A stretch of DNA of 64,000 nt, from contig OZ024740.1 in assembly GCA_964016885.1 (NCBI GenBank), positions 254,758,001 through 254,822,000 of the forward strand, read 5' to 3'. The translations under genes were made by a program, and so were the position numbers. The notes beneath the pieces are model-generated. The model did no database searches, was not told the DNA's origin, and saw only the letters and a program-made list of their open reading frames with translations. The DNA comes from Eledone cirrhosa. Lineage: Eukaryota. Shown piece after piece: positions 3,741-59,907 of this stretch (position 1 is the stretch's first letter; the number at the start of each line of letters is the position of its first letter).

Positions 3741-3751
3741 TATATATATTT

Positions 3752-3903: not shown

Positions 3904-3918
3904 ATATAGAGGACCTAC

Positions 3919-6445: not shown

Positions 6446-6450
<5 letters not shown>
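5305..6450. mobile_element. Non-coding hammerhead-bearing element, ~469-nt unit: one minus copy (5305-5741) followed by ~1.5 tandem plus copies (5742-6450)
   Basis: tgttgaacaaaaaggtgacg at 5742 and 6211; reverse complement at ~5392-5411; no credible ORF. Confidence 0.85.
5427..5469 (-). ncRNA. Minimal type I hammerhead ribozyme
   Basis: acggtg-CUGAUGA-u-agcu-aaca-agcu-u-GAAAC-ua-GUA-caucgu; the plus-strand copy at 6158-6199 lacks U4. Confidence 0.85.
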
Positions 6451-6493
<43 letters not shown>

Positions 6494-6640
6494 ATTAGAA
6501 TACTGGAGCGTGTTTGAGTCAAACACCCTCTTCGTATTATAGAAATGACAGTAAAAGGTATAGCTCAATGCAGTTAAACAGAGCCGAAAAATTAAGAGAG
6601 TAAAACAAAGAATCCTTTAATACATCAAAAGTTTTTATTA

Positions 6641-6678
6641 GCCGACAATGTTTCGTCCTATTAAGGACTCGTCAGGGC
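6641..6678 (-). ncRNA. Minimal hammerhead ribozyme (CUGACGA core)
   Basis: gcc-CUGACGA-gucc-uuaaua-ggac-GAAAC-auu-GUC-ggc. Confidence 0.88.
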
Positions 6679-6690
6679 AATCAATTGATT

Positions 6691-6728
6691 GCCCTGATGA
6701 GTCCTTAATAGGACGAAACATTGTCGGC
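6691..6728 (+). ncRNA. Minimal hammerhead ribozyme (CUGAUGA core)
   Basis: gcc-CUGAUGA-gucc-uuaaua-ggac-GAAAC-auu-GUC-ggc; predicted cut after 6725. Confidence 0.9.
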
Positions 6729-6778
6729 TAATAAAAACTTTTGATGTATTAAAGGATTCTTTGTTTTACTCTCTTAAT

Positions 6779-18625: not shown

Positions 18626-18817
18626 GGAACCAGTAAGACCCCGACAGCTGAGCTCAAGCCGTTTCGACGGCTAATTCAGTCCAGAATTAGCCGTCGAAAC
18701 GGCTTGAGCTCAGCTGTCGGGGTCCTACTGGTTCCTATTACCCACTCTACTACTTCAAGTATTGAGTACTTTGGTGCGTTATGGTCCACCTGGTTCCTTA
18801 CCACATTTCCTTTGTTA
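18623..18817. mobile_element. PLE terminal fragment with 5' inversion (55-bp arms 18623-18677 / 18684-18738), holding the 3' half of a hammerhead and the bulged hairpin (18744-18767)
   Basis: Arms complementary except one base; GAAACggcu...agcuGUC; homologous to 4835-4975. Confidence 0.8.
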
Positions 18818-18844
18818 TATATATATATATACATATATATATAC

Positions 18845-18914
<70 letters not shown>

Positions 18915-18927
18915 GTATATATATATG

Positions 18928-18958
<31 letters not shown>

Positions 18959-18974
18959 GTATATATATATATGT

Positions 18975-21001
18975 AGAAAAAATTATAAAAAATCTAATAA
19001 TGCGTCACTCACCAACATCAACAACAAAACACACAACATAGTAAAAAAACTAAACATTGAAGATAGAACTGAACCTTTGGCATTGAAAAGACCACACTTC
19101 AACCTGAAGGATCACAAATCTAACTTTAACTCAAATCCTTCTATTAGACTTATATGTCCCTCCAAATCAGATATTGGAATAATTAGCAAAAAAATTTTAG
19201 ATAGAGTCATCCCACAAATAAGAAAACACGTTATTTTACCACTCTGGGAAAACACCTCCCAGGTAATTAACTGGTTTAAAAATATTAGGTGTAAATCTTC
19301 TGCTTCATTCCTACAATTTGATATAGATAATTACTATTCTTCTATATCACCTATACTCCTGAACAAAGCATTGATATTTGCTAAAAATAGATCTAACTTA
19401 ACTTTGGATGACATTAATATTATTACACATGCTAGACTAACACTTATTGAATTTCAGAATGAATACTGGACCAGAAACACATATAGTAATCTTTTTGATA
19501 TTACTATGGGTTCAAGCGATTCCGCCCAAATTACTGATCTTGTGGGCCTCTTTCTCCTTTTCAACATAAATGCCTCTTTTCCCCACCTCAAAGGTGGTTT
19601 ATATCGTGATGACTGTCTTCTTCTTTCTAACAACCTTAGCCTTTCAGAAATTGAAAAAACAAAAAACATATTAGAACTTTCCTAAAGACTATTATAATCT
19701 TAATATTACTTTTGAAAAAACAAGTAAAGTAGTAAATTTCCTAGATATAACTTTAGATTTAGCTACGGTATCTACCAACCTTACCATAAACCTAACCAAA
19801 CTTACATTACATACACTCACAATCTAATCACCTAAATCTATCCTTAAAAACCTTGCATATAATATATCACTTAGAATTTCTAACCTTTCTTCTAACCAAG
19901 ATGTATTTGATAAAAATGCGACCTTCTATAACGAAGCTCTAGATAGAAGTGGCCACAAAAATAGATTAGAGTATATACCTTCTACTAAAAATACTGAAAG
20001 CATACAACATAATATTACCAACAAACACCAAATGAAAAGTACACACCTAAATGCCACCCACACTATACCCCAAAATACCAAATCTTCTAATATAAAGTAT
20101 AGTAACTCTCAAAAAACTACTCATCATACAACTCTAATAAATATTAATAATAAAACTCCTAATAAAAAGGATAAAACACCTAAATCTACAAATATAACTA
20201 AAAATGGTTGTGGTGAGATCATTAACATTAATCCTCCTAGTAAAAATCACGATACAACCTATAAAAATAATAAAAATAATAAACAACATAGAAACCGTAA
20301 TAGACGGGTTACTTGGTATAATGCTCCTTTTAATTTACAAGTTAAGGATAATATTGCTAAAAAATTTTTTATATCCTTGAGAAAAACTTCCGCCAAACCA
20401 CAAATACCATCAAATCTTAAATAGGTCTACAGTTAAATTCTCATACTCTACAACAAATAACATAAAACAAAATATAAGTGCCTATAATGCATATAAATGT
20501 AAGAAAACCATAAGTATACCACCAGTACATCAAATTAACCATAATATCTCCTCAAATACAGAATTAACGAAAGGATGTAACTGTAGAAACAAAGCAAACT
20601 GCCCATTAAAAGGGAATTGTCTTGTTAACAACATAGTCTATAAATGTAATGTTAAAACTAAAGATTCTATTTGCTCATATATAGGAGCTACCTCTAACAA
20701 TTTTAAGACAAGGTTTAATACCCACAAGCATAGTTTTAAAAATGCCGCACTGGCTAATACAACATCTCTAGCAGAAAAAATCAATAGTTATAAAAATAAG
20801 AATATAGAATATGATTTGACCTGGAGTGTGCTCAAAAGAGCCACCCCTTATCAAAATAATAGAAATGAATGTAGATTATGTTCCCAAGAACTATTTGAAA
20901 TAATGAAGTCTAAGGATATCTTATTAAATAAACGACAGGAATTAATTATATCGTGTAATCATAAACTAAAAAAAACATTTAAATATTATAAACCTAATTA
21001 A
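18975..21001 (+). pseudogene. Truncated, frameshifted PLE RT/GIY-YIG ORF
   Basis: Same peptide as 25952-27985, broken by seven 1-nt homopolymer deletions. Confidence 0.9.
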
Positions 21002-22642
21002 TAACATTATTTTAGAAATTAATTTAATTTAAATGTTAGTTAACCTATAAATTTAATTTAATTAAAATTTTATTACAGATGAGAATATAAAATATTATGT
21101 AATCATAAATTGTGAAAAACCTTTAAATATTACTAATATATACTTAGTAATTTAATTTATAGATTAATTTTAATTTATTTAAACCTTTTATTATAATTCT
21201 TTTACAGATAAAATATAACAAAATAATATCGTGTATCCAATGACAGAGAAATAATTTTTAGTATTATAGACCTAATTAATATACATTTTAGAAATATATT
21301 TATAATTTGGTTTTAATTTTAATCAACCTAAAAATTTAATTTTAATTTGCTTAAAATTAGTATCCTTATACAGACGAATTGCAGAATGTCATGTAATCAT
21401 AGAATGGGATGTGTTTTGGATATATACCTAGTTAATATATTCTATGCAATTTTTTGAAAAAAATATGTATATGTATATGTGTATGTGTATGTGTGTGTGT
21501 ATGTATATGTGTATATATGTATATATGTATATATGTGTATGTATATGTATATATGTATGTGTATGTATATGTATATGTATATGTATTAATTTTGATTTCT
21601 ATTTGCATATAATTATATTCTGCTATTGATAAAATACAATATCTGTTTTATGTATTATATACCTAATTAACATATACTATAGAAATAAATATATAATTTT
21701 TAATTTAGTTAACCTATAATTTATATTCTACTACCGATGTAATACTTTATTTTATTTGTTTTTTCCCTATTACTAAATTCATTTCCTAATATTGATACCA
21801 TAACGTTATTAACTTTAATTTAGTTATACTATAATTAATACTCTACTACTATTTAACTTCAAAATTCTGCTTCAAATATTATAAACCTAACTAATTTACA
21901 CCTTAGAAATCAATATGTTAACTATCTTTGGTTTAGTTAACATATAATTAATGGTATACTTGTTTATTTTGAGATGCATAGATTTTGCCTTAGTTCTTGT
22001 TTATTGTATTTCCTAACACTGAAACTATGTAAAAACATACATTGGATCAAGATACGGAAAATATTCTATGTTTCTTGAAACATATATTTACTATGATCCC
22101 CTTCTCCAAACCCCCCCTTTCCCCCATACTATTATCATCTGTATTTGTAAGCGTGTATGTATGAATATATATGTAGGTAGGTGTCTATATAGGTTTGGGT
22201 ATTTATATCTGAATATAAAAATACATATATGCGCATGCAAATATGAATGTAAGATTGTGTGTGTATATATGAGTGTGTGTATGTATGTATATATGTGTAT
22301 ATATGCATGTATATATGTGTATGTGAATGTGTGTATGTGTATGTGTATGTATATATATATATGTATATATATATATGTATGTATATATGTATATATAGAA
22401 ATATATATATATATATATATGTATATGTATATGTGTGTGTATGTATGTGTGTGTATGTGTGTTGTATATATATGTATGTCTCTCTATTTATATGTCTATC
22501 TTCGTATCTATGTGGATATATGTGTGTGTGTGTGCATGTATGCACATATATGTGTTTATGTGTATATGTGTGTATGTGTGTATATATGTGTGTGTGCACA
22601 CACATATATATGTGAGTGTGTATATGTGTCTGTGTATATGTA

Positions 22643-22684
<42 letters not shown>

Positions 22685-22770
22685 TGTCTATGTGTGAATA
22701 TATGTCTATATTCGTATGTGTGTATATATGTATGTATATGTTTATGTGTATATATATATATATATATATG

Positions 22771-22813
<43 letters not shown>

Positions 22814-23050
22814 TATTATTATAATATAACTTATGTGTATGTGTGTATATGTGAGGTTGTGTATGTGTATATAATATGTGTATATATAAGTGTAAAAAAA
22901 TATATATATATGTGCATGTCTGTTTTTTATGTGTGTGTATATATATATATATATATATACGTGTGTATATATATGTATATGTGGGTGTTTGTATGTGTAT
23001 TTATGGTGGTATGTGTGTGTGGGTATCTATCTATATATATATATATGAAT

Positions 23051-23106
<56 letters not shown>

Positions 23107-23453
23107 ATATATATCTCTATTAATGCGTGTATATATGTATATACATATGCCTTTTTATTTTTATTTGTATGTCTGAGTTAGGTGAGGTTGTAGTGGTGTT
23201 TTTATGTATATACGCATATATGGATGCGTATGTATTTGTATATATGAGTATAAGTAAGTACATATGTATGTATGATTATATATCTAATTCTATGTATGAA
23301 TATACATCTATATATATGTGTGTATGTAAGTTGTGTATGTATGTATGTATATGTCTATGTGTGTATATATATATGTATGTATATCGATGTACGTGTATGT
23401 ATGTACATGTATGTCTATGTATGTGTGTATGTATGTGTGTGTATATATATATG

Positions 23454-23508
<55 letters not shown>

Positions 23509-23748
23509 GTATATATCTTTATTATTTATTTTTTTTATATATATGTGTGTGTGTGTATGTGTTGTGTGTGTGTGTGTGTGTATATATATCTTTATATATG
23601 TGTATGTGTATGTTCGTGTAGGTGTATGTGTGTGTATGACTTTATATGTATGTGTGTATGTGTGTATGCGTATATATTTCTATGTGTGTGTACATGTATG
23701 TATGTGTGTGTATGTGTATGTGTGTGTATGTGTATATGTATGTGTATG

Positions 23749-23805
<57 letters not shown>

Positions 23806-24141
23806 ATATATATATATATATATATCTATATGTTTTTCTATTTGTATATGTATGTGTGTATAGGTATATACCTTTCTCTTTGTATGTCTAAGTTGTGTGA
23901 TAGTGTAGTGGTGTTTGTATGTATATACCGATATATAGATGCGTAAGTATTTGTCTGTATGTATATATGTAAGTCTGTATATATTTGTGTGTATATATAG
24001 CTATGTATGTGTATATCTGTATGTATATTAGTATGTAAGTGTTGTATATGTGCATGTATGTGTGTGGTTATATATATGTGTGTCTATATAGTATGTGTGA
24101 TTATATGTATATGTGTGTGTATATGTACGTGTATATACATA

Positions 24142-24190
<49 letters not shown>

Positions 24191-25056
24191 ATTTGTATGT
24201 ATATGTGTATATGTATGTATGTGTGTATATGTATATGTTTATATATGTGTGTGTATGTATGTTCTTAGTGTGGATGTGTGTATATGTATATATGTGTTTG
24301 TATATGTGTGTATATATATGTATGTGTGTGTGTGTGTCTATGTGTATATATATGTATATTATATATATATGTGTGTGTATATATATATATATATATGTAT
24401 GTGTATATATATTTTCTTGATATATTTCTTTTTTCTTTTTTCTTTTTTCTTTTTTCTTTCTATTTTTTCCTCTTTAATGTTTATTTATTATTTATTTTTT
24501 ATTTTCTTAGTTTATAGATACATCTATATTAGGCAGTCTGCTCAGACCGTTGAATACTGACCTCTCCCCCCCCTCCCACCTAATTTCTGTATCTTGATCT
24601 AAAAATGTGTGTGCCAGTGTTTATGTGAGTGAATTAATATCCATGTGCTTATGATTTTATATCCACATATATAAATGTGAGTGGGTGTGTGTGTGTGTTT
24701 GTATGTTCGTGGTTATGTGTATATTTATGCATATACGCGCGTGTATGTGTGATTGTACGGATATGTGTGAGTATGAAAAAATATATTTATATACTTAATT
24801 TCATATTTGTGTGTCAATACGCATCTTATCTGTACATTATAAACTTACAGAGACATTAACCTTGAAATTTTGTATTTGCATCCATCCTTTTAGTATGCGT
24901 ATACAAATTATACATACATTTTTGTAAAATATGTGTAAGGGTTTTACATGTATATACACACACCGAACTGCATTTAACCCTTTGTGTTTTCATTGGTCAA
25001 TTTTGTTCCCAAACGGACCTGAATTTTTGAATTGTTGTTATTATCAATAAATATAC

Positions 25057-25543: not shown

Positions 25544-27985
25544 ATGGAAAAACAATATTTAGGAACCTCCTTAAAAAACATACCAATACCTTCTAAGGAT
25601 GACTTCTTACTCCTTATGATTCAGAAAACTAATAATTTTATCAGAAGGGTTAGATGGAGAGCCTACCACTTCGATAGAAAATCTAAACAAGCAGATCGGA
25701 AATATATGTATGATTTCAATACTTACAAGAATCCACCACACAACTTTTTACTTGAAGACTTCGAGAAAGACCTTTTTAATTTAATTAAACACCTCAAATT
25801 TAAAAAGTATAAATCCGTCTTTCAAAAGGACCTTGATTCTACCCTATTGGACCTAAAAAAGTCTAAAAAAATCCATGTCCACTCGGACAAAACTGGTAAC
25901 TTGTATCATATGGATATTGAACATTATAACGAGTTCATATATAAAGAACTCAGAAAAAATTATAAAAAATCTAATAATGCGTCACTCACCAACATCAACA
26001 ACAAAACACACAACATAGTAAAAAAACTAAACATTGAAGATAGAACTGAACCTTTGGCATTGAAAAGACCACACTTCAACCTGAAGGATCACAAATCTAA
26101 CTTTAACTCAAATCCTTCTATTAGACTTATATGTCCCTCCAAATCAGATATTGGAATAATTAGCAAAAAAATTTTAGATAGAGTCATCCCACAAATAAGA
26201 AAACACGTTATTTTACCACTCTGGGAAAACACCTCCCAGGTAATTAACTGGTTTAAAAATATTAGGTGTAAATCTTCTGCTTCATTCCTACAATTTGATA
26301 TAGATAATTACTATTCTTCTATATCACCTATACTCCTGAACAAAGCATTGATATTTGCTAAAAATAGATCTAACTTAACTTTGGATGACATTAATATTAT
26401 TACACATGCTAGACTAACACTTATTGAATTTCAGAATGAATACTGGACCAGAAACACATATAGTAATCTTTTTGATATTACTATGGGTTCAAGCGATTCC
26501 GCCCAAATTACTGATCTTGTGGGCCTCTTTCTCCTTTTCAACATAAATGCCTCTTTTCCCCACCTCAAAGGTGGTTTATATCGTGATGACTGTCTTCTTC
26601 TTTCTAACAACCTTAGCCTTTCAGAAATTGAAAAAAACAAAAAACATATTAGAACTTTCCTTAAAGACTATTATAATCTTAATATTACTTTTGAAAAAAC
26701 AAGTAAAGTAGTAAATTTCCTAGATATAACTTTAGATTTAGCTACGGGTATCTACCAACCTTACCATAAACCTAACCAAAACTTACATTACATACACTCA
26801 CAATCTAATCACCCTAAATCTATCCTTAAAAACCTTGCATATAATATATCACTTAGAATTTCTAACCTTTCTTCTAACCAAGATGTATTTGATAAAAATG
26901 CGACCTTCTATAACGAAGCTCTAGATAGAAGTGGCCACAAAAATAGATTAGAGTATATACCTTCTACTAAAAATACTGAAAGCATACAACATAATATTAC
27001 CAACAAACACCAAATGAAAAGTACACACCTAAATGCCACCCACACTATACCCCAAAATACCAAATCTTCTAATATAAAGTATAGTAACTCTCAAAAAACT
27101 ACTCATCATACAACTCTAATAAATATTAATAATAAAACTCCTAATAAAAAGGATAAAACACCTAAATCTACAAATATAACTAAAAATGGTTGTGGTGAGA
27201 TCATTAACATTAATCCTCCTAGTAAAAATCACGATACAACCTATAAAAATAATAAAAATAATAAACAACATAGAAACCGTAATAGACGGGTTACTTGGTA
27301 TAATGCTCCTTTTAATTTACAAGTTAAGGATAATATTGCTAAAAAATTTTTTTATATCCTTGAGAAAAACTTCCCGCCAAACCACAAATACCATCAAATC
27401 TTAAATAGGTCTACAGTTAAATTCTCATACTCTACAACAAATAACATAAAACAAAATATAAGTGCCTATAATGCATATAAATGTAAGAAAACCATAAGTA
27501 TACCACCAGTACATCAAATTAACCATAATATCTCCTCAAATACAGAATTAACGAAAGGATGTAACTGTAGAAACAAAGCAAACTGCCCATTAAAAGGGAA
27601 TTGTCTTGTTAACAACATAGTCTATAAATGTAATGTTAAAACTAAAGATTCTATTTGCTCATATATAGGAGCTACCTCTAACAATTTTAAGACAAGGTTT
27701 AATACCCACAAGCATAGTTTTAAAAATGCCGCACTGGCTAATACAACATCTCTAGCAGAAAAAATCAATAGTTATAAAAATAAGAATATAGAATATGATT
27801 TGACCTGGAGTGTGCTCAAAAGAGCCACCCCTTATCAAAATAATAGAAATGAATGTAGATTATGTTCCCAAGAACTATTTGAAATAATGAAGTCTAAGGA
27901 TATCTTATTAAATAAACGACAGGAATTAATTATATCGTGTAATCATAAACTAAAAAAAACATTTAAATATTATAAACCTAATTAA
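25544..27985 (+). CDS. Penelope-like reverse transcriptase + GIY-YIG endonuclease, 813 aa from first ATG
   Basis: [34 protein letters not shown]; CxCx5C linker (CNCRNKANC); IVYKC...SYIGAT; CRLC. Confidence 0.95.
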   Translation: MEKQYLGTSLKNIPIPSKDDFLLLMIQKTNNFIRRVRWRAYHFDRKSKQADRKYMYDFNTYKNPPHNFLLEDFEKDLFNLIKHLKFKKYKSVFQKDLDSTLLDLKKSKKIHVHSDKTGNLYHMDIEHYNEFIYKELRKNYKKSNNASLTNINNKTHNIVKKLNIEDRTEPLALKRPHFNLKDHKSNFNSNPSIRLICPSKSDIGIISKKILDRVIPQIRKHVILPLWENTSQVINWFKNIRCKSSASFLQFDIDNYYSSISPILLNKALIFAKNRSNLTLDDINIITHARLTLIEFQNEYWTRNTYSNLFDITMGSSDSAQITDLVGLFLLFNINASFPHLKGGLYRDDCLLLSNNLSLSEIEKNKKHIRTFLKDYYNLNITFEKTSKVVNFLDITLDLATGIYQPYHKPNQNLHYIHSQSNHPKSILKNLAYNISLRISNLSSNQDVFDKNATFYNEALDRSGHKNRLEYIPSTKNTESIQHNITNKHQMKSTHLNATHTIPQNTKSSNIKYSNSQKTTHHTTLININNKTPNKKDKTPKSTNITKNGCGEIININPPSKNHDTTYKNNKNNKQHRNRNRRVTWYNAPFNLQVKDNIAKKFFYILEKNFPPNHKYHQILNRSTVKFSYSTTNNIKQNISAYNAYKCKKTISIPPVHQINHNISSNTELTKGCNCRNKANCPLKGNCLVNNIVYKCNVKTKDSICSYIGATSNNFKTRFNTHKHSFKNAALANTTSLAEKINSYKNKNIEYDLTWSVLKRATPYQNNRNECRLCSQELFEIMKSKDILLNKRQELIISCNHKLKKTFKYYKPN

Positions 27986-29626
27986 TAACATTATTTTAGA
28001 AATTAATTTAATTTAAATGTTAGTTAACCTATAAATTTAATTTAATTAAAATTTTATTACAGATGAGAATATAAAATATTATGTAATCATAAATTGTGAA
28101 AAACCTTTAAATATTACTAATATATACTTAGTAATTTAATTTATAGATTAATTTTAATTTATTTAAACCTTTTATTATAATTCTTTTACAGATAAAATAT
28201 AACAAAATAATATCGTGTATCCAATGACAGAGAAATAATTTTTAGTATTATAGACCTAATTAATATACATTTTAGAAATATATTTATAATTTGGTTTTAA
28301 TTTTAATCAACCTAAAAATTTAATTTTAATTTGCTTAAAATTAGTATCCTTATACAGACGAATTGCAGAATGTCATGTAATCATAGAATGGGATGTGTTT
28401 TGGATATATACCTAGTTAATATATTCTATGCAATTTTTTGAAAAAAATATGTATATGTATATGTGTATGTGTATGTGTGTGTGTATGTATATGTGTATAT
28501 ATGTATATATGTATATATGTGTATGTATATGTATATATGTATGTGTATGTATATGTATATGTATATGTATTAATTTTGATTTCTATTTGCATATAATTAT
28601 ATTCTGCTATTGATAAAATACAATATCTGTTTTATGTATTATATACCTAATTAACATATACTATAGAAATAAATATATAATTTTTAATTTAGTTAACCTA
28701 TAATTTATATTCTACTACCGATGTAATACTTTATTTTATTTGTTTTTTCCCTATTACTAAATTCATTTCCTAATATTGATACCATAACGTTATTAACTTT
28801 AATTTAGTTATACTATAATTAATACTCTACTACTATTTAACTTCAAAATTCTGCTTCAAATATTATAAACCTAACTAATTTACACCTTAGAAATCAATAT
28901 GTTAACTATCTTTGGTTTAGTTAACATATAATTAATGGTATACTTGTTTATTTTGAGATGCATAGATTTTGCCTTAGTTCTTGTTTATTGTATTTCCTAA
29001 CACTGAAACTATGTAAAAACATACATTGGATCAAGATACGGAAAATATTCTATGTTTCTTGAAACATATATTTACTATGATCCCCTTCTCCAAACCCCCC
29101 CTTTCCCCCATACTATTATCATCTGTATTTGTAAGCGTGTATGTATGAATATATATGTAGGTAGGTGTCTATATAGGTTTGGGTATTTATATCTGAATAT
29201 AAAAATACATATATGCGCATGCAAATATGAATGTAAGATTGTGTGTGTATATATGAGTGTGTGTATGTATGTATATATGTGTATATATGCATGTATATAT
29301 GTGTATGTGAATGTGTGTATGTGTATGTGTATGTATATATATATATGTATATATATATATGTATGTATATATGTATATATAGAAATATATATATATATAT
29401 ATATGTATATGTATATGTGTGTGTATGTATGTGTGTGTATGTGTGTTGTATATATATGTATGTCTCTCTATTTATATGTCTATCTTCGTATCTATGTGGA
29501 TATATGTGTGTGTGTGTGCATGTATGCACATATATGTGTTTATGTGTATATGTGTGTATGTGTGTATATATGTGTGTGTGCACACACATATATATGTGAG
29601 TGTGTATATGTGTCTGTGTATATGTA

Positions 29627-29668
<42 letters not shown>

Positions 29669-29754
29669 TGTCTATGTGTGAATATATGTCTATATTCGTA
29701 TGTGTGTATATATGTATGTATATGTTTATGTGTATATATATATATATATATATG

Positions 29755-29799
<45 letters not shown>

Positions 29800-30034
29800 T
29801 ATTATTATAATATAACTTATGTGTATGTGTGTATATGTGAGGTTGTGTATGTGTATATAATATGTGTATATATAAGTGTAAAAAAATATATATATATGTG
29901 CATGTCTGTTTCTTATGTGTGTGTATATATATATATATATATACGTGTGTATATATATGTATATGTGGGTGTTTGTATGTGTATTTATGGTGGTATGTGT
30001 GTGTGGGTATCTATCTATATATATATATATGAAT

Positions 30035-30094
<60 letters not shown>

Positions 30095-30441
30095 ATATAT
30101 ATCTCTATTAATGCGTGTATATATGTATATACATATGCCTTTTTATTTTTATTTGTATGTCTGAGTTAGGTGAGGTTGTAGTGGTGTTTTTATGTATATA
30201 CGCATATATGGATGCGTATGTATTTGTATATATGAGTATAAGTAAGTACATATGTATGTATGATTATATATCTAATTCTATGTATGAATATACATCTATA
30301 TATATGTGTGTATGTAAGTTGTGTATGTATGTATGTATATGTCTATGTGTGTATATATATATGTATGTATATCGATGTACGTGTATGTATGTACATGTAT
30401 GTCTATGTATGTGTGTATGTATGTGTGTGTATATATATATG

Positions 30442-30496
<55 letters not shown>

Positions 30497-30736
30497 GTAT
30501 ATATCTTTATTATTTATTTTTTTTATATATATGTGTGTGTGTGTATGTGTTGTGTGTGTGTGTGTGTGTATATATATCTTTATATATGTGTATGTGTATG
30601 TTCGTGTAGGTGTATGTGTGTGTATGACTTTATATGTATGTGTGTATGTGTGTATGCGTATATATTTCTATGTGTGTGTACATGTATGTATGTGTGTGTA
30701 TGTGTATGTGTGTGTATGTGTATATGTATGTGTATG

Positions 30737-30791
<55 letters not shown>

Positions 30792-31127
30792 ATATATATA
30801 TATATATATATCTATATGTTTTTCTATTTGTATATGTATGTGTGTATAGGTATATACCTTTCTCTTTGTATGTCTAAGTTGTGTGATAGTGTAGTGGTGT
30901 TTGTATGTATATACCGATATATAGATGCGTAAGTATTTGTCTGTATGTATATATGTAAGTCTGTATATATTTGTGTGTATATATAGCTATGTATGTGTAT
31001 ATCTGTATGTATATTAGTATGTAAGTGTTGTATATGTGCATGTATGTGTGTGGTTATATATATGTGTGTCTATATAGTATGTGTGATTATATGTATATGT
31101 GTGTGTATATGTACGTGTATATACATA

Positions 31128-31180
<53 letters not shown>

Positions 31181-32047
31181 ATTTGTATGTATATGTGTAT
31201 ATGTATGTATGTGTGTATATGTATATGTTTATATATGTGTGTGTATGTATGTTCTTAGTGTGGATGTGTGTATATGTATATATGTGTTTGTATATGTGTG
31301 TATATATATGTATGTGTGTGTGTGTGTCTATGTGTATATATATGTATATTATATATATATGTGTGTGTATATATATATATATATATGTATGTGTATATAT
31401 ATTTTCTTGATATATTTCTTTTTTCTTTTTTCTTTTTTCTTTTTTCTTTCTATTCTTTCCTCTTTAATGTTTATTTATTATTTATTTTTTATTTTCTTAG
31501 TTTATAGATACATCTATATTAGGCAGTCTGCTCAGACCGTTGAATACTGACCTCTCCCCCCCCCTCCCACCTAATTTCTGTATCTTGATCTAAAAATGTG
31601 TGTGCCAGTGTTTATGTGAGTGAATTAATATCCATGTGCTTATGATTTTATATCCACATATATAAATGTGAGTGGGTGTGTGTGTGTGTTTGTATGTTCG
31701 TGGTTATGTGTATATTTATGCATATACGCGCGTGTATGTGTGATTGTACGGATATGTGTGAGTATGAAAAAATATATTTATATACTTAATTTCATATTTG
31801 TGTGTCAATACGCATCTTATCTGTACATTATAAACTTACAGAGACATTAACCTTGAAATTTTGTATTTGCATCCATCCTTTTAGTATGCGTATACAAATT
31901 ATACATACATTTTTGTAAAATATGTGTAAGGGTTTTACATGTATATACACACACCGAACTGCATTTAACCCTTTGTGTTTTCATTGGTCAATTTTGTTCC
32001 CAAACGGACCTGAATTTTTGAATTGTTGTTATTATCAATAAATATAC

Positions 32048-34093: not shown

Positions 34094-34117
34094 TTGTCTT
34101 AAAAAACTTATTTTTCA

Positions 34118-36209
34118 GTGACTTCTCAATCAGCCAAGACAAACCGATCTAGGGACTTAACAAACTGTATAATAGGAAGTATGGATGTTGTGTCCCTATA
34201 TCCATCTATTGACGTGGATTTTGCTGTGGAGAAATGCGCAGAAATGATCAGTGAGAGCAATGTTGAATTCCGTGGGATTGATACCAGTGAGCTGGGACTC
34301 CTACTTAAACTTACCTATAGTAATAATTATCTAGACACATATGACCTTAGCAACCTGTGCCTTACAAGACCAGCAAGAGGCAGACCACCTACCATTACCT
34401 CAATGGCCAAGAAAACCCACACAGATATATGGAACGGGTGGACCAGAGCCATACGGACCCCTGAAAACCACGATGAACTAAAAAAAATGATTGCACATGG
34501 GGTGGGGGCCAGCATAAAATTAACCCTTAAGGAACATATGTTCAAATTTAATGGAAAAACATATGCCCAAGAGGAGGGAGCAGCCATTGGTGTTAGCATT
34601 GCAGGCGACATAGCTAACTTATTCATGGTATGGTGGGGCAGTAAACTTAAACTTAAAGAACCTGATAATGTACTCCCGCTACGTTGATGATGTAAACATC
34701 GTAGTTAACACACCCCCACTAGAGAACAGTCAGGAATTAGAGAAAAACACAATGGAAAGCATCCAGCAAATAGCTAACTCCATCCACCAGAGTATTAGAG
34801 TTACTATAGACTACCCAAGCAAACACCCCAACCATCGATTACCTGTACTAGACACAGAGCTCTGGTTAGATACCATTAATAACAAAAAACAAATCCTCCA
34901 TTCCCATTATGCCAAACCCATGACTTCCAAATGTCTGATCCACCGAAACTCAGCTGTTTTGGACCATACCAAAATCAACATACTGATTGCGGATTTGGTA
35001 CGGGTGATGAGAAACGTGTCCCACATGTGCAACCCCGAAGAACTAGAGAGACACATACAACACTTCATCCACCATATGCAGTTCTCTGGTTACAATCAGA
35101 GAGATATAAAATCAGAGTGTATAGAGGAGCCAGAACCAAATGGGAAAAAATGGTAAATAATGACACAAATGGGACCTGCCCCTTGTATAGGAGCAAATTT
35201 TGAAATAGAATAGAAAAAACTAGGAATAAGGCTAATAGAATAAACACATGGTATAATAGCAATAAATACCAGAGTGTAATGTTCATCGATACAACCCCTA
35301 GAGGTGAATTAGCTTACACATTTAGAAGGGCCCTAGATAAACATAAACTCAATATTAAGATAGTAGAAAAACCAGGTACCTCCATAAAAACACTTATTAG
35401 CAAGACACCCTTTTCAAAGACCTCCCTGTATAGATAAGAAATGTATAATCTGTAAATTAAGCCCCCATATTAACTGTAAAACTAGAAATATAGTATATAG
35501 CATAAGATGTACTGAAGGACAATGTAGAGATAAAAATATAGTGTACATAGGTGAGACAGCTCGTAGTATAGGGGAACGGATAAATGAACACTGGCGAGAC
35601 CTTCAAGATAGTAAAGAATCATCTGTACTCTACCAACATGCTAAAATAGAACATAAGGGTAAATTAGAGAACATAGAAATAAAAATAGAATCTACACACA
35701 GAAAAGACGCAATGTTTAGACAAATCACAGAGGCAATAAACATAAATGAATTACAACCAAAATTAAATAGAAAACATGAGTGGAACAGCAACATCAGAAC
35801 TTACAATTAAGGTCAAAATGAAAACACACACGCACATAGAACAAACAACCAACCAGTAACATGTAAATAAACAAATAAATAAACGAATATAAACACACAC
35901 AGACACCCGGATGTAACACATGCGCAAACTAAGCACACAACACACACACGAAAACAAGATGGTGTAGGACAGAACAAAGGACTGGCACAAAAAACAAAGA
36001 AAAGAACCCCCATTCACTGAAGAGGTCACAGAATATGTGACGAAAGAACTTTGACAATATATAAACAACCATCTGGTTGTGGAACCAACCAACCAACGGG
36101 AAATTTATAAATTCCTAAATTTATAAATTTATTATAATAAATTGAAGTGAAAGCAACTGGTGCGTGTGTTTCTTATTTGCAACATGACCCTCCCAAAGTA
36201 TAACAATAT
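34118..36209 (+). mobile_element. Decayed Penelope-like element of a different (non-Naiad) lineage; coding remnant 34118-35810 plus 3' pLTR
   Basis: SMDVVSLYPSI, QEEGAAIG, SRYVDD, LPVLD, YIGETARSIGERINEH across frameshifts and stops; 33386-34117 may be its 5' region. Confidence 0.88.
36013..36055 (+). ncRNA. Hammerhead-like motif in pLTR
   Basis: uca-CUGAAGA-g-gucaca...ugugac-GAAAG-aa-CUU-uga; better-paired copy at 51631-51673. Confidence 0.6.
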
Positions 36210-36300
36210 ATATATATATATATATATATGTGTATATATATATATATGTATATATATACGTATATATATATATATATAGGTAATATGTATATATGTATAT

Positions 36301-39898: not shown

Positions 39899-42800
39899 AT
39901 AAAAATAACCACTACCACAGTCATCAACAGTCTTCTAAACAGGAAACTTCTTCCTCTTTTTTAGCCATAATGAATCTGGCAAAAGAACTGGAAAAAAACA
40001 TTCGAGCTATCACCCAGCACCACCCTCCACTATCACCCCACTGCACAAACTCCCATTGCTGCCATTAACAAACAAACAAATTAACAACACACCAAAACAA
40101 TTAAAACCATCCACTCTCGCCTCTACATTTTTGCTTAACGCCCAAGGCATCAGCCCTTCCACCAATACTCAAAAATGGAAGATCAAATTCCTGGAGGACT
40201 GGATTGATGTCCATCCAAACCACATCCCTTTCTTCGTCCTCACTGAAACCCATCTCAGTAACCTCCACTTGGATGCCGAGGTGAAAGTGAAAAATTTCAA
40301 AGCCATCCGTGCTGATCGCGCTGGCAGAAGAAAGGGCGGAACTACCATTTATGTCCATAATTCTTTCTCAACAGAGGCTATGAACATATTCACTAATGGA
40401 TACTGTGAAGCAGTCACTGTATTCAGTCAAACCAACAACCTATTAGTAGTTGGGCTCTATAGGCCACCCCAAACGCCTGTACCATGCTTCAAGGAATGCC
40501 TCAACAGCATAAAGTGTTTCATCCAAGAGTGTCACCCTGACAACATCTTAATGATGGGGGACTTCAACCTCCCCGGAGTTGACTGGTCCACAAACAGCCT
40601 GCCACCAGGTTCTTCTGCCTCAACCTCTGACAGGGAAGCTGTGGAATCGCTTCTTGACTTCATGGATGATTTCTTCCTATCCCAACTGGTGCTCGAACCA
40701 ACGAGGTGCCACAAAAACGTCCTAGACTTAATTTTCAGCAATCACACTGACAATATCCACAATATTGCAGTGGAGAAAACTCTACTCTCTGATCATGACA
40801 TGGTTCTCTGTGATCTGAGATTCCACCGTCCAATATACAAACCCAATGTCATCTCTCCTGTCCATCCGTTTGACGCTATGGATTTCCACAATGCAAACTG
40901 GGAAGCGATCAGTCATGATCTTGCACATGTCGACTGGTCCTTCACGCACACTCATACACCCACTAACATCAAAAAGTCCTGGCAGACATTTGTGGACACT
41001 GTTACAAACATATGTGCTAAACACACCCCATTAAGAACTATAAACAAATCTAAGAGCAGAATCCCTAGAAATAGAAAAACGCTCATCAGAAAAATTAAGA
41101 GAACGAACAAAAAAATCAACAAGCTGAAATACTGTCAGCAGCAACACATCAACTTGACTGCCATTTCATCACTAGAGATTAAAAAACATAACCTCCAAAA
41201 CAACATAATGTCCCTCATCAACAATCAGAGAAGAGCTGAAGAGGCCTGGGCCATTGAGAAGATCAAACTCAATCCCAAAGTGTTCTTTTCATTTGCAAAA
41301 AAACACAAAATCACTGGCTCTACTGTTGGCCCTCTAATTGATGAAAATGGCACTCTTCAAGACAATGCTAAAACCATGGGTGAGATACTGCAGAAACAAT
41401 ACTGCTGTTTTCAGCAATCCTGATATGGCCGATCTGGGCTGTATCGGCGATGTTACTCCCCATTACACCTTATCGGACATAACGTTTGGCGCCCCTGATG
41501 TCTTGGCGGCAATAAAGGAAATCAAGCATAATTCAGCAGTAGGTCCCGATAGGTTCCCTGCTTGTGTCTTGAAGGCGTGTCAACACCAACTTGCATCTCC
41601 TCTTGCCAATCTGTGGCGGAACTCACTGGATGCTGGATATGTGCCAGAAAACCTTCTATCCCAGTCTGTTATCCCAGTTTTCAAAAAGGGAAACAAATCC
41701 CTTGCCGTGAATTACCGTCCAATCTCACTCACCTCTCATATCATTAAGGTATTTGAGCGAGTGGTGAGATCGCGAATGACCCACTTCCTTGAGAGTAACA
41801 ATATGCTGAACTCCAACCAGCATGGATTCCGTAATGGAAGGGATTGCCTGACGCAGCTACTGCATCACTTTGATGACATTTTGAGAGCCTTGGGAGAGGG
41901 TTCCAACACTGATGTTATCTACCTTGATTTCAGCAAGGCCTTTGACAGGGTTGATCATAACATTCTACTGAGAAAGCTGTCCAATATTGGTGTCACTGGA
42001 AAGCTGCTGCAGTGGATCAAGAGCTTCCTGTCAAACAGAACCCAACATGTTGTAGTTGAGGGAGTCAAATCAAGCCCAGCCAAAGTCAGTAGTGGGGTCC
42101 CACAAGGCACTGTGTTGGGCCCACTTCTCTTCATCATCTATATTAATGACATCACTGACATCATCAAACACAGCAACATTAAAATTTTCGCTGATGATTC
42201 CAAGCTCCAAAAGGTCATCAATGGCGTGGATGACCGGATAAGCCTTCAGTCAGACCTACTGGCTGTTACCCAATGGGCGGAAAAGAACAACATGTTACTG
42301 AACGAAGACAAATTCGAACTGATCCACTTTGGAAAAGAGGATGCTCTGAAACTCCCGTACTCCCTTCCCTCCGGGGAAACTCTCGTGGCATCTAACAACA
42401 TCAGAGACTTGGGAGTAACCGTGGACAGCAACATAAGCTGGACCACGCATATAAGCAGCAAAGTTGACATGGCCCGCAGAATGTGTTCCTGGATCCTCAG
42501 AACCTTCCAGTCGAGAGATTCCCGCACCATTATCCTTCTCTTCTCTACTTTTGCCCGACCACACCTTGAATACTGTTGTCCACTGTGGTCTCCCCACACG
42601 AAACAAAGTATCATGAAACTTGAAGCTCCTCAAAGGGCAATCACGAAAAAGATAGATGGCATGTCAGACCTTGACTACTGGGGTCGATTAGAAAACCTGA
42701 AACTTTACTCACTCCAACGTCGCCGTGAGCGTTATATTATCTGCATGATGTGGAAAATGTTCCATCATCACTGCCCAAATGATGTTGGCATCGCCTTCAA

Positions 42801-43150
42801 GATACACCCAAGGCTTGGGCCCCGTGCTATCCGTCCCATTCAAAAATCTAAATCGCAACTCATAACAACAATACGGCACAATTATTTCACCTCAATCGGC
42901 CCTGCTCTCTTCAACATTACACCAGGACACGTCAAAACAGAAACTGACCACACAAAATTCAAGAAGTCTTTGGACAAATTCCTCCAAGTAATCCCGGACA
43001 AACCACCCGCACCCGGATATGTCTCCGCAAACAGTAATTCTCTTCTCGAATGGGCCATGGTGCCCAAATCCTGAATTGAAAGACTTCGCCAGGTGGTGCT
43101 ATCAAGTTAGACATGGCCTGGGCCAATACTGGCCAAAACATTTCAAAGTT
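39899..43150 (+). mobile_element. CR1/L2-group LINE, 5'-truncated
   Basis: APE + RT ORF2 and a short 3' UTR ending in (TA)n. Confidence 0.92.
40056..43074 (+). pseudogene. LINE ORF2 (AP endonuclease + RT) with one frameshift near 41400
   Basis: LTETH, YRPP, GDFNLP, LDL, SDH; NYRPISLTS, YLDFSKAFD, GVPQGTVLGP, FADD, EYCCPLWSPH, SLQRRR. Confidence 0.9.
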
Positions 43151-43158
43151 ATATATAT

Positions 43159-43443
<285 letters not shown>

Positions 43444-43471
43444 CATACATATATATATATATACATATATA

Positions 43472-43749
43472 TGGAAAGTTATATTTAAATTGTTGGGTTA
43501 CAACTAGTAAATATTTATAACTGATATAAAAGCACTCGACAAGTATTTGGAGTATATTTACGATATTAAATAAATGGAAACTATATTTATAAAACCATAT
43601 TTATTTCATTATATATATTTCAGGGATATCATATTAACAATATGCTATGCCTTCCTCAGACAAAATACAATATAAACAGTTTTATAGATAAATAGATTTG
43701 ACATACCGTACAACATCGACTTGTATTTGAAAAGTTGAATTGGCAGTTA
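43472..43749 (-). mobile_element. PLE-type terminal fragment with hammerhead (43602-43667) and bulged hairpin (43534-43553)
   Basis: uauuuugu-CUGAGGA-aggcauagcauauu-guu-aauaugauaucccu-GAAAU-auau-AUA-augaaaua. Confidence 0.75.
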
Positions 43750-48670: not shown

Positions 48671-51219
48671 ATAAACATAATATATAAGAACAAAAGATGG
48701 TTAAAAGAGTTCCATGTATTTTATTATGCGCATTTCAAAAACAAATATCATGCAATAATATTTGTGTTTTCATCAGATAAAACAGGGAGACATGATATGA
48801 AGGTTAAAAAACACTTGTGGATAGTTTAGTTTTAAATCAACGTATGAGAAGTAGTTTTAGATTGATGTGTGATATTGGGAAAAATATTTTATTTAGAGGG
48901 GGGGGGGTTGGAAAGGATGAAAAAGAGGAGGAGATGAGAGTAAAAAGTGGAGAGGGAGGAGTATAATGAGGAAGGATGAGATAGGAGGAGAGATGGGTGA
49001 TAGAGAGAGAGAGATAGCTTTTACATAGAGAGGTTGAAAACCGTTGGAAGATAATGTATAAATTAAAAGAATTTGAAAATTAACGAAGAGAAAAAAATAA
49101 TGTAAAGTTAAGGTTTGTATATTGAGGGGTTTGATAATATGTGCGATGAAAAAGAAAATGTTAATATGTATTGAGAATAATATTTAGGGTTTAATAATAT
49201 GTGCGATGTTAAGAAAATGTTGATATGTATTATTAAAAGGAACAACAGGTTATTTAAGTAAGGAAATATTGTGAGATGAATGAGTTAGATGAAAGGGAGA
49301 AAAGAATAATGAATTGAGGATGAATAATCTAACGTCAAAAAAATGTATATGTTTACGAAGGATTTTTACAAGGTGATATAGAGTAAGAATGTATTGTATT
49401 ATGTAATAATTGATTCTATGTTAGGCAACAGTGAGAAAAGGTACAGATTGGGGGTTAGATATTAAAAGAAGAAGAAAAGAAAGGGAAGTGATAAATAGGA
49501 GCGATGTAGAATGAGTAACAATTATTATAGAATGTATAATAACCTTTGAAATAAGGTGGGTATATTTTTAAAAGAAGTGTATATATATATATGTGCCTTT
49601 GAGAAAAAGATTCTAAATTGATAAAGAATTGAATATTAGCTGTATACTTTGTGAAATGTTTTATGGAATTTATGCAAGCAGATAGAAAACAAGTCAGTGC
49701 GTCTATTTATTATAGAATCTAAATTAGAAATAATGGTAAATTTTTCATTTAGACAGAGATTGCAAATTTTGGATAGAGAACTGTTCAAGTATGAAGACGC
49801 AGAAGAAACCTTCTTCCAAAAGATGCTATATTTAATATTTTTGTCTTTCAAGGACCATATGAGTTCTGAGAGAGCCGTGTTGGTTCTTTTAAGTTTGTAT
49901 TTAAAAGACGAATGATGGTTATAAAGACGAGCTTTAAAAGAGGTGGAAGTGGAGCCAAAATAGGTGAAGGAATTGGTGTCAGTTATAACTTTACATTCGT
50001 AAATTAAGTTTTTATCAAGACAATGGTTGTTGAGAGGACATTTATTTTTAATAGGGCAATTGCAATTGCGATTAGAGAGATTATTAATGAGTGACCTAGT
50101 GTTATCTATAGAAGGAATTGGATTGGAGAAGTTATTTGCGATAGGAATAATAGTTTCTTGATTTAGAATGGGATTAAGAACATTTAGCGAAGTTGTGTTT
50201 GACGTTGTATTTGGGTTTGTAGAAATTAGCCTAGGGTTTACAATGACGTCGGGAGTACTATTATTATGATATTCAGTGTTGGAAGGAAGAGATTTAGTAT
50301 TTAGTATTTTATTGTTGTGTTTAGAGATAATGTTGGAAATGTTGGAGGATGTAGAATAGGAAAATTTTATAGTGTGTTTGTTAAATATTTTACTATTGAT
50401 ATGTGAGGGAGGGAAGCATTTATTTAAGGCACTAAAGAATAATTTAGGAATATTGTTATTAATAGAGATGGAGAAAGGAGCATTATACCAGATTATGTTT
50501 TTGTATCTAGGTCTTTTATTAAAGTTATTGGAATGATCATGATTAATTATTCTACTGTAATTTCTTCTAGAATTTGTTTCTTTACTATATTTGATTTTAT
50601 CAGGATAGCCGGCTTTAGAAAGCGCGTTATTATAGTAATTGGCGTTAGCATCAAAGATGTTTTTATTAGAAGATAGGTTAGATATTCTTTTTCCAATATT
50701 ACTAACTATAGCATTCTTGATATTAGTAGGATGGTTAGATTTAAAGTTAACATAATTTAGGTTCTCATTGTTTTTATGGTAAGGGTAATATAGGCTAGTG
50801 TCAAGATTAAGAGATACATCCAAGAAATTAGCTAGTTTGATACTGTTATCAAATTCAATTTTTAGGTTATGTTGGTTAAAGAGATTACGTATATTGTTCT
50901 TAATAATATTAAGGTTAACTATGTTGCAATTTAAGATAGTAAAGAGTCCATCGTCACGATAAATTCCACCGCGAAGTTGAGGAATTTTCCGACTCAAAGA
51001 GTTCAAAATAAAGATACTAATTAAATCAGTCAATTGGGATGAATCGGATGCTCCCATTGTGATGTCGAAGTTGTTAGAGGTATCGGCTCGGGTCCAATAT
51101 TCGTTGTTGAACTCTAGGATAGTTTTATGTGCGGTGAGAATGATGTGAAGTTCATCCGTGGTGATGTCAGAGTATTTAAGTGCGAAAGATAGAGCATTAT
51201 TGAGAAGTGAAAGCGAAAT
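48671..51219 (-). mobile_element. Naiad-type PLE family 2, 5'-truncated; open coding part 49636-51219
   Basis: FDITMGASD, IYRDD, NFLDV, WYNAPF, CNCPIKNKC, LIYEC...YFGST, CNLC. Confidence 0.92.
48719..48782 (-). ncRNA. Hammerhead of family 2
   Basis: uuuuau-CUGAUGA-14 bp stem II-GAAAU-gcgc-AUA-auaaaa; further copies at 52963-53033 (-) and 54363-54432 (+). Confidence 0.82.
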
Positions 51220-51880
51220 CTCTAATTTACCCTTGTGTTCTAAATAGAACATAAAAATAGAAAAATAGAACACGAGGGTAAATTAGAGAACATGGAAATA
51301 AAAATAGAATCTCCACACAGAAAAGACGCAATGTTTAGACAAATCACAGAGGCAATAAACATAAAAGAATTACAACCAAAATTAAATAGAAAATATGAGT
51401 GGAACAACAACATCACAACTTACAATTAAGGACAAAATGAAAACACACACACACATAGAACAAACAACCAACCAGTAACATGTAAATAAACAAATAAATA
51501 AATGAACATAAACACACACAGACACCCGGATGTGGCGCATGCGCAGACTGAGCACACAACACACACACAGAAACAAAATGGCGTAGGACAGAACAAAGGA
51601 GAGGCACAAAAACAAAGAAAGGAATCCCCAGTCACTGAAGAGGTCACAGAGTGTGTGACGAAAGAACTATGACAATATATAAACAACTATCTAGTTGTGG
51701 AACCAACCAACCAACCAGAAATTTATAAATTTATTATAAATTTATTATAATAAATTGAAGTGAAAGCAACTGGTGCGTGTGTTTCTTATTGGCAACATGA
51801 CGCTCCCAAAGTATAACAATATCGGTTTCAACACACGATTTCAGATAAAGAATCTTGCTAAACAAATTCAGAAACGAAAT
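51220..51880 (+). mobile_element. 3' fragment of the 34118-36209 PLE family with short 5' inversion, hammerhead-like motif (51631-51673) and ~58-nt tail extension
   Basis: Homologous to 35645-36209; tctctaatttacccttgtgttcta is inverted to tagaacacgagggtaaattagaga. Confidence 0.85.

Positions 51881-56746: not shown

Positions 56747-56790
<44 letters not shown>
54554..56790. repeat. ~2.2 kb TA/TACA microsatellite
   Basis: Direct reading. Confidence 0.95.
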
Positions 56791-56792
<2 letters not shown>

Positions 56793-57588
56793 GTGAATAT
56801 AGACATAGAATATTCGAAAATATTCTGTATGTTTATAATAAACATTTTGAAGACCTAATCGCTATAGAATAGAATACGTCACGTATTACAATTAGATTCT
56901 CGATAAAAGCAAGGGAAGTAATCTACGCGTTTCATTCTTGTTAGAAATCATCAGGACTACATATCCAGTGCTTTTATCGAGAATGACACAGCTAGAGACT
57001 TATAGAATACTTAGCTGTGTACAGGAACTGGTTTGAAAGAGCGGTTGCCGGTCCGGCAGAAATTAGAAATTGGAATAAATGCTCTGAAATAGCGATATAT
57101 ATGTGAATATAGACATAGAATATTCGAAAATATTCTGTATGTTTATAATAAACATTTTGAAGACCTAATCGCTATAGAATAGAATACGTCACGTATTACA
57201 ATTAGATTCTCGATAAAAGCAAGGGAAGTAATCTACGCGTTTCATTCTTGTTAGAAATCATCAGGACTACATATCCAGTGCTTTTATCGAGAATGACACA
57301 GCTAGAGACTTATAGAATACTTAGCTGTGTACAGGAACTGGTTTGAAAGAGCGGTTGCCGGTCCGGCAGAAATTAGAAATTGGAATAAATGCTCTGAAAT
57401 AGCGATATATATGTGAATATAGACATAGAATATTCGAAAATATTCTGTATGTTTATAATAAACATTTTGAAGACCTAATCGCTATAGAATAGAATACGTC
57501 ACGTATTACAATTAGATTCTCGATAAAAGCAAGGGAAGTAATCTACGCGTTTCATTCTTGTTAGAAATCATCAGGACTACATATCCAG
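56791..57588 (-). mobile_element. Retrozyme-like tandem array: 2.6 identical 310-bp units, each with a hammerhead
   Basis: atgtgaatatagacatag at 56791, 57101, 57411; HHRs at 56918-56960, 57228-57270, 57538-57580. Confidence 0.88.
56918..56960 (-). ncRNA. Minimal type I hammerhead (one of three)
   Basis: guaguc-CUGAUGA-u-uucu-aaca-agaa-u-GAAAC-gc-GUA-gauuac. Confidence 0.88.

Positions 57589-59907
<2,319 letters not shown>

Follow-up and report, generated by a model that had tools for sequence, protein, structure and literature searches.

The DNA analysed here (the window) comprises 64,000 nucleotides of the Eledone cirrhosa genome (GenBank assembly GCA_964016885.1, contig OZ024740.1, positions 254,758,001 to 254,822,000 of the forward strand), and positions are counted from its first letter. 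Embedded in a TA tract that extends for at least 2.2 kb on each side lies a tandem array of 804 bases (56785-57588). Comparison of the window with itself gives a perfect period of 310 bases over 2.59 units, without any mismatch, each base from 56785 to 57278 being identical to the base 310 positions further on. A preliminary description had reported about 2.6 identical non-coding units of this length. This is confirmed, and only the start is moved to 56785, as the former start (56791) falls within the 8 bases ATATATAT which are common to the unit and its flank. A coding role for the unit is ruled out: its longest ATG-started frame has 30 codons and none is longer, the concatemer included. The flanks contain no transposon ORF, and neither LTR, PBS and PPT nor an attached reverse transcriptase (RT) ORF is present at the array, which has TA tracts on both sides. 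Tandem Repeats Finder does not call the array separately from the surrounding tract, and Rfam microRNA matches in the flanks were discarded as TA-repeat noise. The array and its borders comprise the following features:

56785..57588, minus strand: candidate retrozyme array, 2.59 identical 310-base units, non-coding, 34% GC
57234..57543, minus strand: cut-to-cut monomer 1, 310 nt, predicted circular RNA
56924..57233, minus strand: cut-to-cut monomer 2, 310 nt, between predicted cuts
57538..57580, minus strand: type I hammerhead copy 1, predicted cut 57544/57543, without the 5′ arm of the 16-bp extension
57228..57270, minus strand: type I hammerhead copy 2, predicted cut 57234/57233
56918..56960, minus strand: type I hammerhead copy 3, predicted cut 56924/56923
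56896..56984, minus strand: perfect 16-bp helix (arms 56896-56911 and 56969-56984), again at 57206-57221 / 57279-57294
57117..57136, minus strand: 8-bp hairpin in the computed fold, UUCG loop on the ribozyme strand
56755..56792, plus strand: left copy of the target-site duplication, 38 bp, whose last 8 bases (56785-56792) are also in the unit (putative priming overlap)
57589..57626, plus strand: right copy of the target-site duplication, 38 bp, flush with the 5′ end of the array

Three CUGAUGA cores are found on the minus strand, starting at 57574, 57264 and 56954, and behind each come helix II, GAAA, the ACGCGU palindrome and the cut triplet GUA. The motif is of type I: helix I has 6 bp, a U.U precedes the 4-bp helix II with its AACA loop, and helix III has 1-2 bp. 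Copy 1 lacks the 5′ arm of the 16-bp helix because the array begins at 57588. The window has three occurrences of the 31-base core, and 100 shuffles have none. No Rfam match in the window reaches its gathering score; Hammerhead_HH9 matches all three motifs weakly (19-20 bits, best 20.2, with a cut-off of 52; E 0.04-0.08). On the plus strand of the unit no hammerhead or Rfam ribozyme is found. The palindrome-bearing minus-strand hammerhead in each unit, the cut positions and the two exact 310-nt monomers agree with the preliminary description. The same description had called the motif ‘minimal’, which does not stand. As defined in PMC4209133, the canonical animal hammerhead has a helix I of 6 bp, a helix II of 4 bp and a helix III of 1-2 bp with a palindromic loop, whereas the minimal form of Penelope-like elements (PLEs) is described there as having no helix III, a helix II of 7-8 bp with an extra 5′ base and a helix I of 4-5 bp. 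With predicted helices of 6, 4 and 1-2 bp the unit hammerhead is canonical in size. The conserved G10.1-C11.1 pair is absent from it, with U.U in place. Related, apparently solitary hammerheads of the U.U/AACA design lie at 292-322 and 253-283 of two sequences (L008 and L013) from one metagenome assembly, one of them adjoining a TTTA repeat; the design occurs beyond this genome.

For the cut-to-cut monomer the computed fold has -72.5 kcal/mol (z -4.4), a value equalled by none of 100 shuffles, and 57-60% of the monomer's bases are paired in it. The 16-bp helix, an exact reverse complement as the preliminary description had it, extends helix I and closes the monomer, with a pair probability of 0.97-1.0 for 14 of its 16 pairs. 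The three shorter stems and the hairpin of that description are also in place. Two ribozyme regions folded together form a double hammerhead in which a 6-bp helix III joins the two molecules; its energy is -31.3 kcal/mol compared with 2 x -12.6 for the monomers, and the computed probability of helix II in the monomeric circle is 0.13-0.16. These two results predict cutting in multimers and a quiet circle, and the co-folding energy lends computational support to the dimer-type ribozyme proposed earlier. In the minimum-energy fold of the full 789-nt tandem the double hammerhead, which is the active shape, is absent.

The borders of the array are informative about its origin. An exact second copy of the 38 bases that end at 56792 begins at 57589, and both copies are flush with the junctions. 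This 38-mer occurs once among the 2195 positions of the left tract and once among the 2275 of the right tract, flush in both cases, and six times in the window. Among 20000 random junction pairs drawn from the same tracts, an overlap of at least 38 is found in 0.2-0.4%, and one of at least 30, the 8 unit-shared bases being left out, in about 0.8-1.8%. We read the repeat as a target-site duplication of 30-38 bp. Together with the identity of the units it supports the young insertion that had been proposed. On the ribozyme strand, the 3′ end of the insertion lies 131-139 bases past the cut site, at AUAUAUAU, which overlaps the target; the earlier observation that this end is internal to the unit and merges with the TA flank is borne out. 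An end at this place indicates that reverse transcription began inside the unit. Since the copy crosses three cut sites and a cut linear monomer would give about 135 bases, the template was either circular or an uncleaved multimer (or the insertion was a shorter tandem, later expanded).

Internal priming has a precedent. One Penelope-like enzyme, studied in purified form, nicks DNA rich in AT and begins to reverse-transcribe at a point inside the RNA, about 85-92 nt beyond the hammerhead cut (PMC11167929). According to the same account, its priming site is not homologous to the cut DNA, its main substrate is uncleaved RNA, and ribozyme mutants of the tested element inserted normally. Such nonhomologous priming and preference for uncleaved RNA weaken two steps which we infer for the present unit, namely priming by overlap and a circular template.

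To identify candidate helpers, 13 of the 124 long frames of the window were translated, leaving out those in TA tracts and short antisense frames. The Penelope-like copies that resemble the Hydra clade are these:

[quoted passage not shown]
48690..51282, minus strand: 5′-truncated Hydra-clade element, ORF 49636-51282, with its own hammerhead at 48776
18708-21001: RT ORF, broken near-copy of the 813-aa ORF, C-terminal endonuclease after CxCx5C

The 813-aa ORF has 118 relatives at 31-48% identity. It carries both DKT and CxCx5C, and the truncated ORF at 49636 retains only CxCx5C of the clade motifs. A second copy of the 3′ end of the truncated element, with a hammerhead at 53025, enters the TA tract 39 bases past the cut. 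Pfam reports nothing in any of the five transposon ORFs. Craig et al. (2021, PMC8557442) characterize the Hydra clade by DKT, CxCX5C, a C-terminal endonuclease and hammerheads, with all families inserting into (TA)n. Naiads are described in the same source as preferring (TA)n too, with a GIY-YIG endonuclease at the N-terminus, a DKA motif and no hammerheads. Judged by their motifs, the neighbouring ORFs would fit the Hydra clade. The preliminary description had suggested co-located Naiad machinery; this has to be replaced by the Hydra clade, as the ORFs carry a C-terminal endonuclease, DKT, CxCx5C and downstream hammerheads. No Naiad was identified among the 13 translated ORFs. As a helper it is not supported, because the N-terminal endonuclease of Naiads and their lack of hammerheads disagree with the C-terminal YIG and the DKT seen here. 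The Hydra clade is most likely the best candidate helper. Target and co-occurrence are the sole grounds for this helper, since the unit has no sequence similarity to any PLE or Hydra terminal repeat in the window and since a second family with a C-terminal endonuclease also ends in TA.

This second PLE family (34103-36250 and 51262-51880) retains a remnant of the endonuclease and has minimal-type hammerheads at 36017 and 51635 on the plus strand. Two blocks of about 7 kb (19059-25030 and 26036-32021) are 99.6-100% identical, each starting with a Hydra-type ORF and containing long microsatellites; they reflect either a tandem insertion of very recent date, its 3′ flank included, or a duplication made in assembly. 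A solitary hammerhead with a long helix II and a palindromic helix III (43659, minus strand) lies in 43150-43700, and the 3′ end there enters TA 136 bases past the cut; the spacing in the 310-base unit is similar. A nearly intact LINE at 39939-43074 encodes an apurinic endonuclease and an RT in two overlapping frames and ends in a TA tract. At 5305-6470 there is a second, unrelated hammerhead tandem with a period of about 469, a U.U, an AACA loop and the palindrome ACUAGU. Its intact core is at 5463 (minus strand), and a copy near 6160 (plus strand) has lost one base of the core. It consists of a partial tandem and an inverted copy between TA tracts, shares the ribozyme design of the 310-base unit and represents a second retrozyme-like family. 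The adjacent 178-base inverted repeat (6596-6773, 98.9%) has two head-to-head hammerhead-like ends and enters the TA tract. It looks like a typical inverted Penelope-type insertion and would be a ready source of double-stranded RNA. Finally, four exons of phosphorylase kinase beta lie on the minus strand at 1340-4112, of which 3918-4070 matched human residues 56-102 and the others were recognised by eye. The SINE, RTE and TA-repeat content has an octopus-like appearance.

Sequence near-identical to the unit also turns up outside this assembly. It is found in 20 of the 24 sequencing runs listed, at 76-100% of 25 sampled words, in 16 studies and under 17 coded organism labels (2020-2025); in 14 runs under 12 labels at least 92% of the words are found. 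Among the 24 runs listed, no holder of the unit is recorded as RNA. Four runs (X1, X18, X20 and X24) were compared with one monomer. X1 yields a single contig of 340 bases, that is 310 plus an overlap of 30, which forms a closed cycle without branch and without any difference, at a depth of 11.9. X18 yields one contig of 280 bases that spans the joint with one difference, at a depth of 5.1. In X20, 282 records lie on the monomer with a summed depth of 300-1600; 1% of the aligned sequence continues into unlike letters, and a contig of depth 145 crosses the cut site with no extra letters. X24, raw Hi-C data (1938 million letters, 12.8 million reads) with the label and study of X11, one of the runs that contain the unit, has no reads on the monomer and counts as no test. 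A cycle in a contig is compatible with a circle and with a tandem alike, but shows that there is no branch into an ORF. The table of molecule ends on the monomer is empty, as contigs do not display such ends. The near-identity across labels could mean that close relatives have a young family in common, that the element has spread horizontally, or that traces from an abundant source contaminate the runs, the last having about an even chance. Among the viral contigs a loose core pattern has one hit, which lies in coding-like sequence and lacks the helices. The metagenome contigs gave no match to the specific pattern and 12 to the loose one, none resembling the unit; L008 and L013 are two of these 12. 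In these scanned collections, no relative beyond the ribozyme core is found. The openly accessible papers covered contain no account of the family, its editing or its spread.

The records of X20 reveal a distinctive pattern of changes. The kind of this run is not on record and it may come from another species than the window; editing counts derive from five contigs and three loose-end rows compared by eye. (Four of the six loose-end rows of X20 were used; a low-agreement diverged variant and an 8-base stub were left out.) Read on the plus strand, the ten variant sites listed comprise three A>G and seven T>C changes and no other kind. One contig has A>G at 10 of the 12 A in 57075-57104 and no change at the 18 other bases, another stretch (57111-57132, one contig) has A>G at 6 of 12 A, and three contigs have T>C at all six T of 57339-57360, which corresponds to A to G on the ribozyme strand. 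These three strand-pure clusters hold 22 changes and cover both polarities. No G precedes any of the 22 changed A, compared with five of eight unchanged A that have one (Fisher p 0.0004), nor does a G precede any of the ten variant-table sites. Depletion of an upstream G is reported for ADAR across animals (PMC5625713). RNA of both polarities thus appears to be heavily A-to-I edited by ADAR, as far as the pattern of changes indicates. X20 is taken to be an RNA run because of this pattern and its small size (88 million letters, where three runs under the same label have about 1400 million).

Four of the table sites lie within the ribozyme: core A14 (57241, about 5%), helix II (57245 and 57248, about 28-30%) and loop 2 (57251, 18%), these percentages being shares of summed contig depth and not of reads. 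Several changed positions are predicted to be unpaired in single-strand folds, which suggests long sense/antisense duplexes. Editing on two strands is most simply explained by inverted or antisense genomic copies in pre-mRNA; RNA-to-RNA copying is the bolder option. A further X20 contig, behind 57118, shows by eye eight differences, which amount to two compensated pairs and a change of the hairpin loop; on the ribozyme strand the loop reads GCAA instead of UUCG. Both UUCG and GCAA are extra-stable tetraloops.

We consider it probable that the array is a recent non-coding hammerhead tandem of the non-LTR retrozyme type, copied into TA by a PLE enzyme, most likely of the Hydra clade. The sequence of the unit shows what would be expected of such an animal element: two or more successive units carrying a complete type I hammerhead (three cores, two monomers), a unit length within 170-400 nt (310), a GC content below 45-50% (34%), a non-coding and self-paired unit, and a target-site duplication of more than 4 bp (30-38). 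Cleavage and circles are predictions. The candidate retrozyme of the preliminary description gains support, at the level of sequence, from the array, the three motifs, the duplication and the lack of an attached RT ORF.

The proposed life cycle would begin with transcription of a tandem copy by read-through. Two ribozymes would pair their ACGCGU palindromes into the 6-bp helix III and cut; a lone monomer would mostly misfold helix II and survive as a circle, which a host ligase of the RtcB type could close. The helper would then nick (TA)n, the nicked end would prime inside the unit, and reverse transcription would cross three cut sites. A staggered cut of the second strand would produce the duplication of 30-38 bp. 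RNA of both polarities would form long duplexes and be hyper-edited by ADAR, also in helix II and at core A14, and the ribozyme would be weakened or switched off in the edited molecules. As the template for insertion we lean slightly towards the circle, and we assign the uncleaved multimer a smaller but substantial chance. Rolling around a circular template is plausible; an uncleaved multimeric transcript leaves an identical footprint.

Doubt about the circle can be carried further. It is possible, albeit distinctly less probable than the retrozyme reading, that no circle takes part at all and that the template was read-through RNA from a longer master array, left uncleaved, as with ordinary Penelope insertions of partial-tandem type, the ribozyme being slow or idle. 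The substrate preference and the normally inserting ribozyme mutants of the tested Penelope-like enzyme (PMC11167929) point this way, as do frog retrozymes, for which a preprint reports eight of nine predicted dimers without cleavage in vitro (10.64898/2026.07.22.740005), the depth-145 contig of X20 which reads through the cut site, and the lack of a private change common to all units of the window (0 differences from X1). However, each of the three copies has an intact core, and the compared runs share one identical dominant form. The 16-bp helix is also predicted to juxtapose both cut ends of the monomer, and northern blots are reported to have detected circles for all three animal retrozymes tested (PMC7229834). 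The more radical view that the RNA also replicates from RNA to RNA in the manner of a viroid or satellite and passes from host to host, with genomic copies as occasional footprints, is quite unlikely. It would account for the hyper-edited pieces of both polarities, whose changes at several unpaired positions imply sense/antisense duplexes, and for the occurrence in 20 runs, 16 studies and under 17 labels, with X1 and X18, from two other labels, differing by 0 and 1 letter; RNA-to-RNA copying of retrozymes has also been suggested in a review (PMC7761336). Yet the plus strand has no ribozyme motif, and inverted or antisense copies in pre-mRNAs give equal editing, inverted Penelope-type insertions being usual (5305-6470). 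The clean single contigs at depths of 5-12 also fit trace contamination, and the labels may belong to close relatives. A reading that combines everything, in which a 310-nt circular retrozyme is also a viroid-like traveller, almost unchanged through recent spread across species, copied from RNA to RNA by host or helper polymerases, disarmed by ADAR as a defence and now and then written into TA by Hydra machinery through rolling, seems to us improbable as a whole.

Two further explanations concern the DNA itself. The unit might be the pLTR of an autonomous PLE located outside the window (a truncated tandem), or a satellite which arose at the DNA level from such a remnant. In the frog preprint (10.64898/2026.07.22.740005), 24 of 57 retrozyme families resemble known elements at the termini, 21 of them Penelope-like, and Penelope-type 3′ ends and TA targeting are both seen in the window. 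We regard this as unlikely, since the unit is unlike the pLTRs of the window, its ribozyme is canonical and not minimal, no ORF flanks it, the X1 cycle is unbranched and only 1% of X20 leads into unlike letters. The ORF-free TA flanks, the dissimilarity to pLTRs and the closed cycle of X1 thereby disfavour a ‘mere pLTR’, the objection which the preliminary description had raised against its own reading. Ancestry from a pLTR would be compatible with a retrozyme; only present-day attachment would contradict it. A mistake of assembly, by which the unit was repeated or a contaminant was joined into the TA tract, is very improbable. In its favour, the units show no differences among them, TA tracts pose difficulties for assembly, near-identical 7-kb blocks occur in the window, and the runs compared come from samples other than the window's own. 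Against this stand the end-to-start junction in three independent runs and a flush duplication whose 38-mer occurs only once in each flanking tract, which a chance join would not be expected to produce.

For the class as a whole the mobilising element, the circle as template and the source of RNA heterogeneity are open in the papers covered, and this locus would make the first and the last of these testable. A review notes that retrozyme repeats carry no motif that tells which autonomous element mobilises them (PMC7761336), and for the heterogeneity of cloned retrozyme RNA either editing or RNA-to-RNA copying has been offered as the cause (PMC7229834). Mobilisation is open to reconstitution here because the footprint points to a helper clade with an open ORF 30 kb away. 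The locus also provides a concrete two-polarity ADAR signature with changes inside the ribozyme. Should the near-identity across labels stem from genuine spread instead of contamination, a small catalytic RNA element would be crossing animal species.

How does the unit relate to known systems? As described by Cervera and de la Pena (2020, PMC7229834) and by Li, Clavereau and Pollet (2026, 10.64898/2026.07.22.740005), animal non-LTR retrozymes are non-coding tandems of 170-400 nt with one type I hammerhead per unit, a GC content under 45-50% and a self-paired fold. They have no LTR, PBS or PPT, show duplications of more than 4 bp if any, and occur in genomes which contain Penelope-like elements. 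All of this is shared by the array. It differs from the known members in that it represents a new sequence family, with no relative beyond the ribozyme core in the collections scanned, and by its insertion into (TA)n, the defined 38-bp duplication and the internal 3′ end. The two-polarity A-to-I pattern and the near-identity across labels were not found among the features of retrozymes reported in the accessible text of these sources.

At the level of the ribozyme, the closest parallels are in axolotl (PMC7229834). The unit motif has in common with HHR_Amex1 a 1-bp helix III under a palindromic tetraloop, and with HHR_Amex2 a U.U mismatch at the base of helix II. Both axolotl ribozymes are reported there to cleave better as dimers, and the one with the U.U mismatch to reach 22% cleavage as a monomer. 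In contrast to axolotl and newt hammerheads, the unit joins both weakening features in one motif and sits in an invertebrate-type genome; most of the invertebrate ribozymes tested in that study cleave well as monomers.

With regard to mobilisation, Hydra-clade PLEs are described as inserting into (TA)n, carrying hammerheads and having 3′ ends that merge with TA soon after the ribozyme (PMC8557442; bioRxiv 2021.04.23.441226), as does the unit. They are autonomous, with RT and C-terminal GIY-YIG, whereas the unit is not coding, and the copies in the window have a long helix II and no sequence common to the unit. Naiads share the (TA)n preference, but their endonuclease is N-terminal and hammerheads are absent according to Craig et al. 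(2021). The Poseidon element of Anolis (Frangieh et al. 2024, PMC11167929) resembles the unit in its AT-rich nick and its internal start past the hammerhead; its start is an AC-rich stem-loop not homologous to the target, whereas the 3′ end of the unit has the 8-base target overlap. The class is already known, the family is new, and its footprints are unusually informative.
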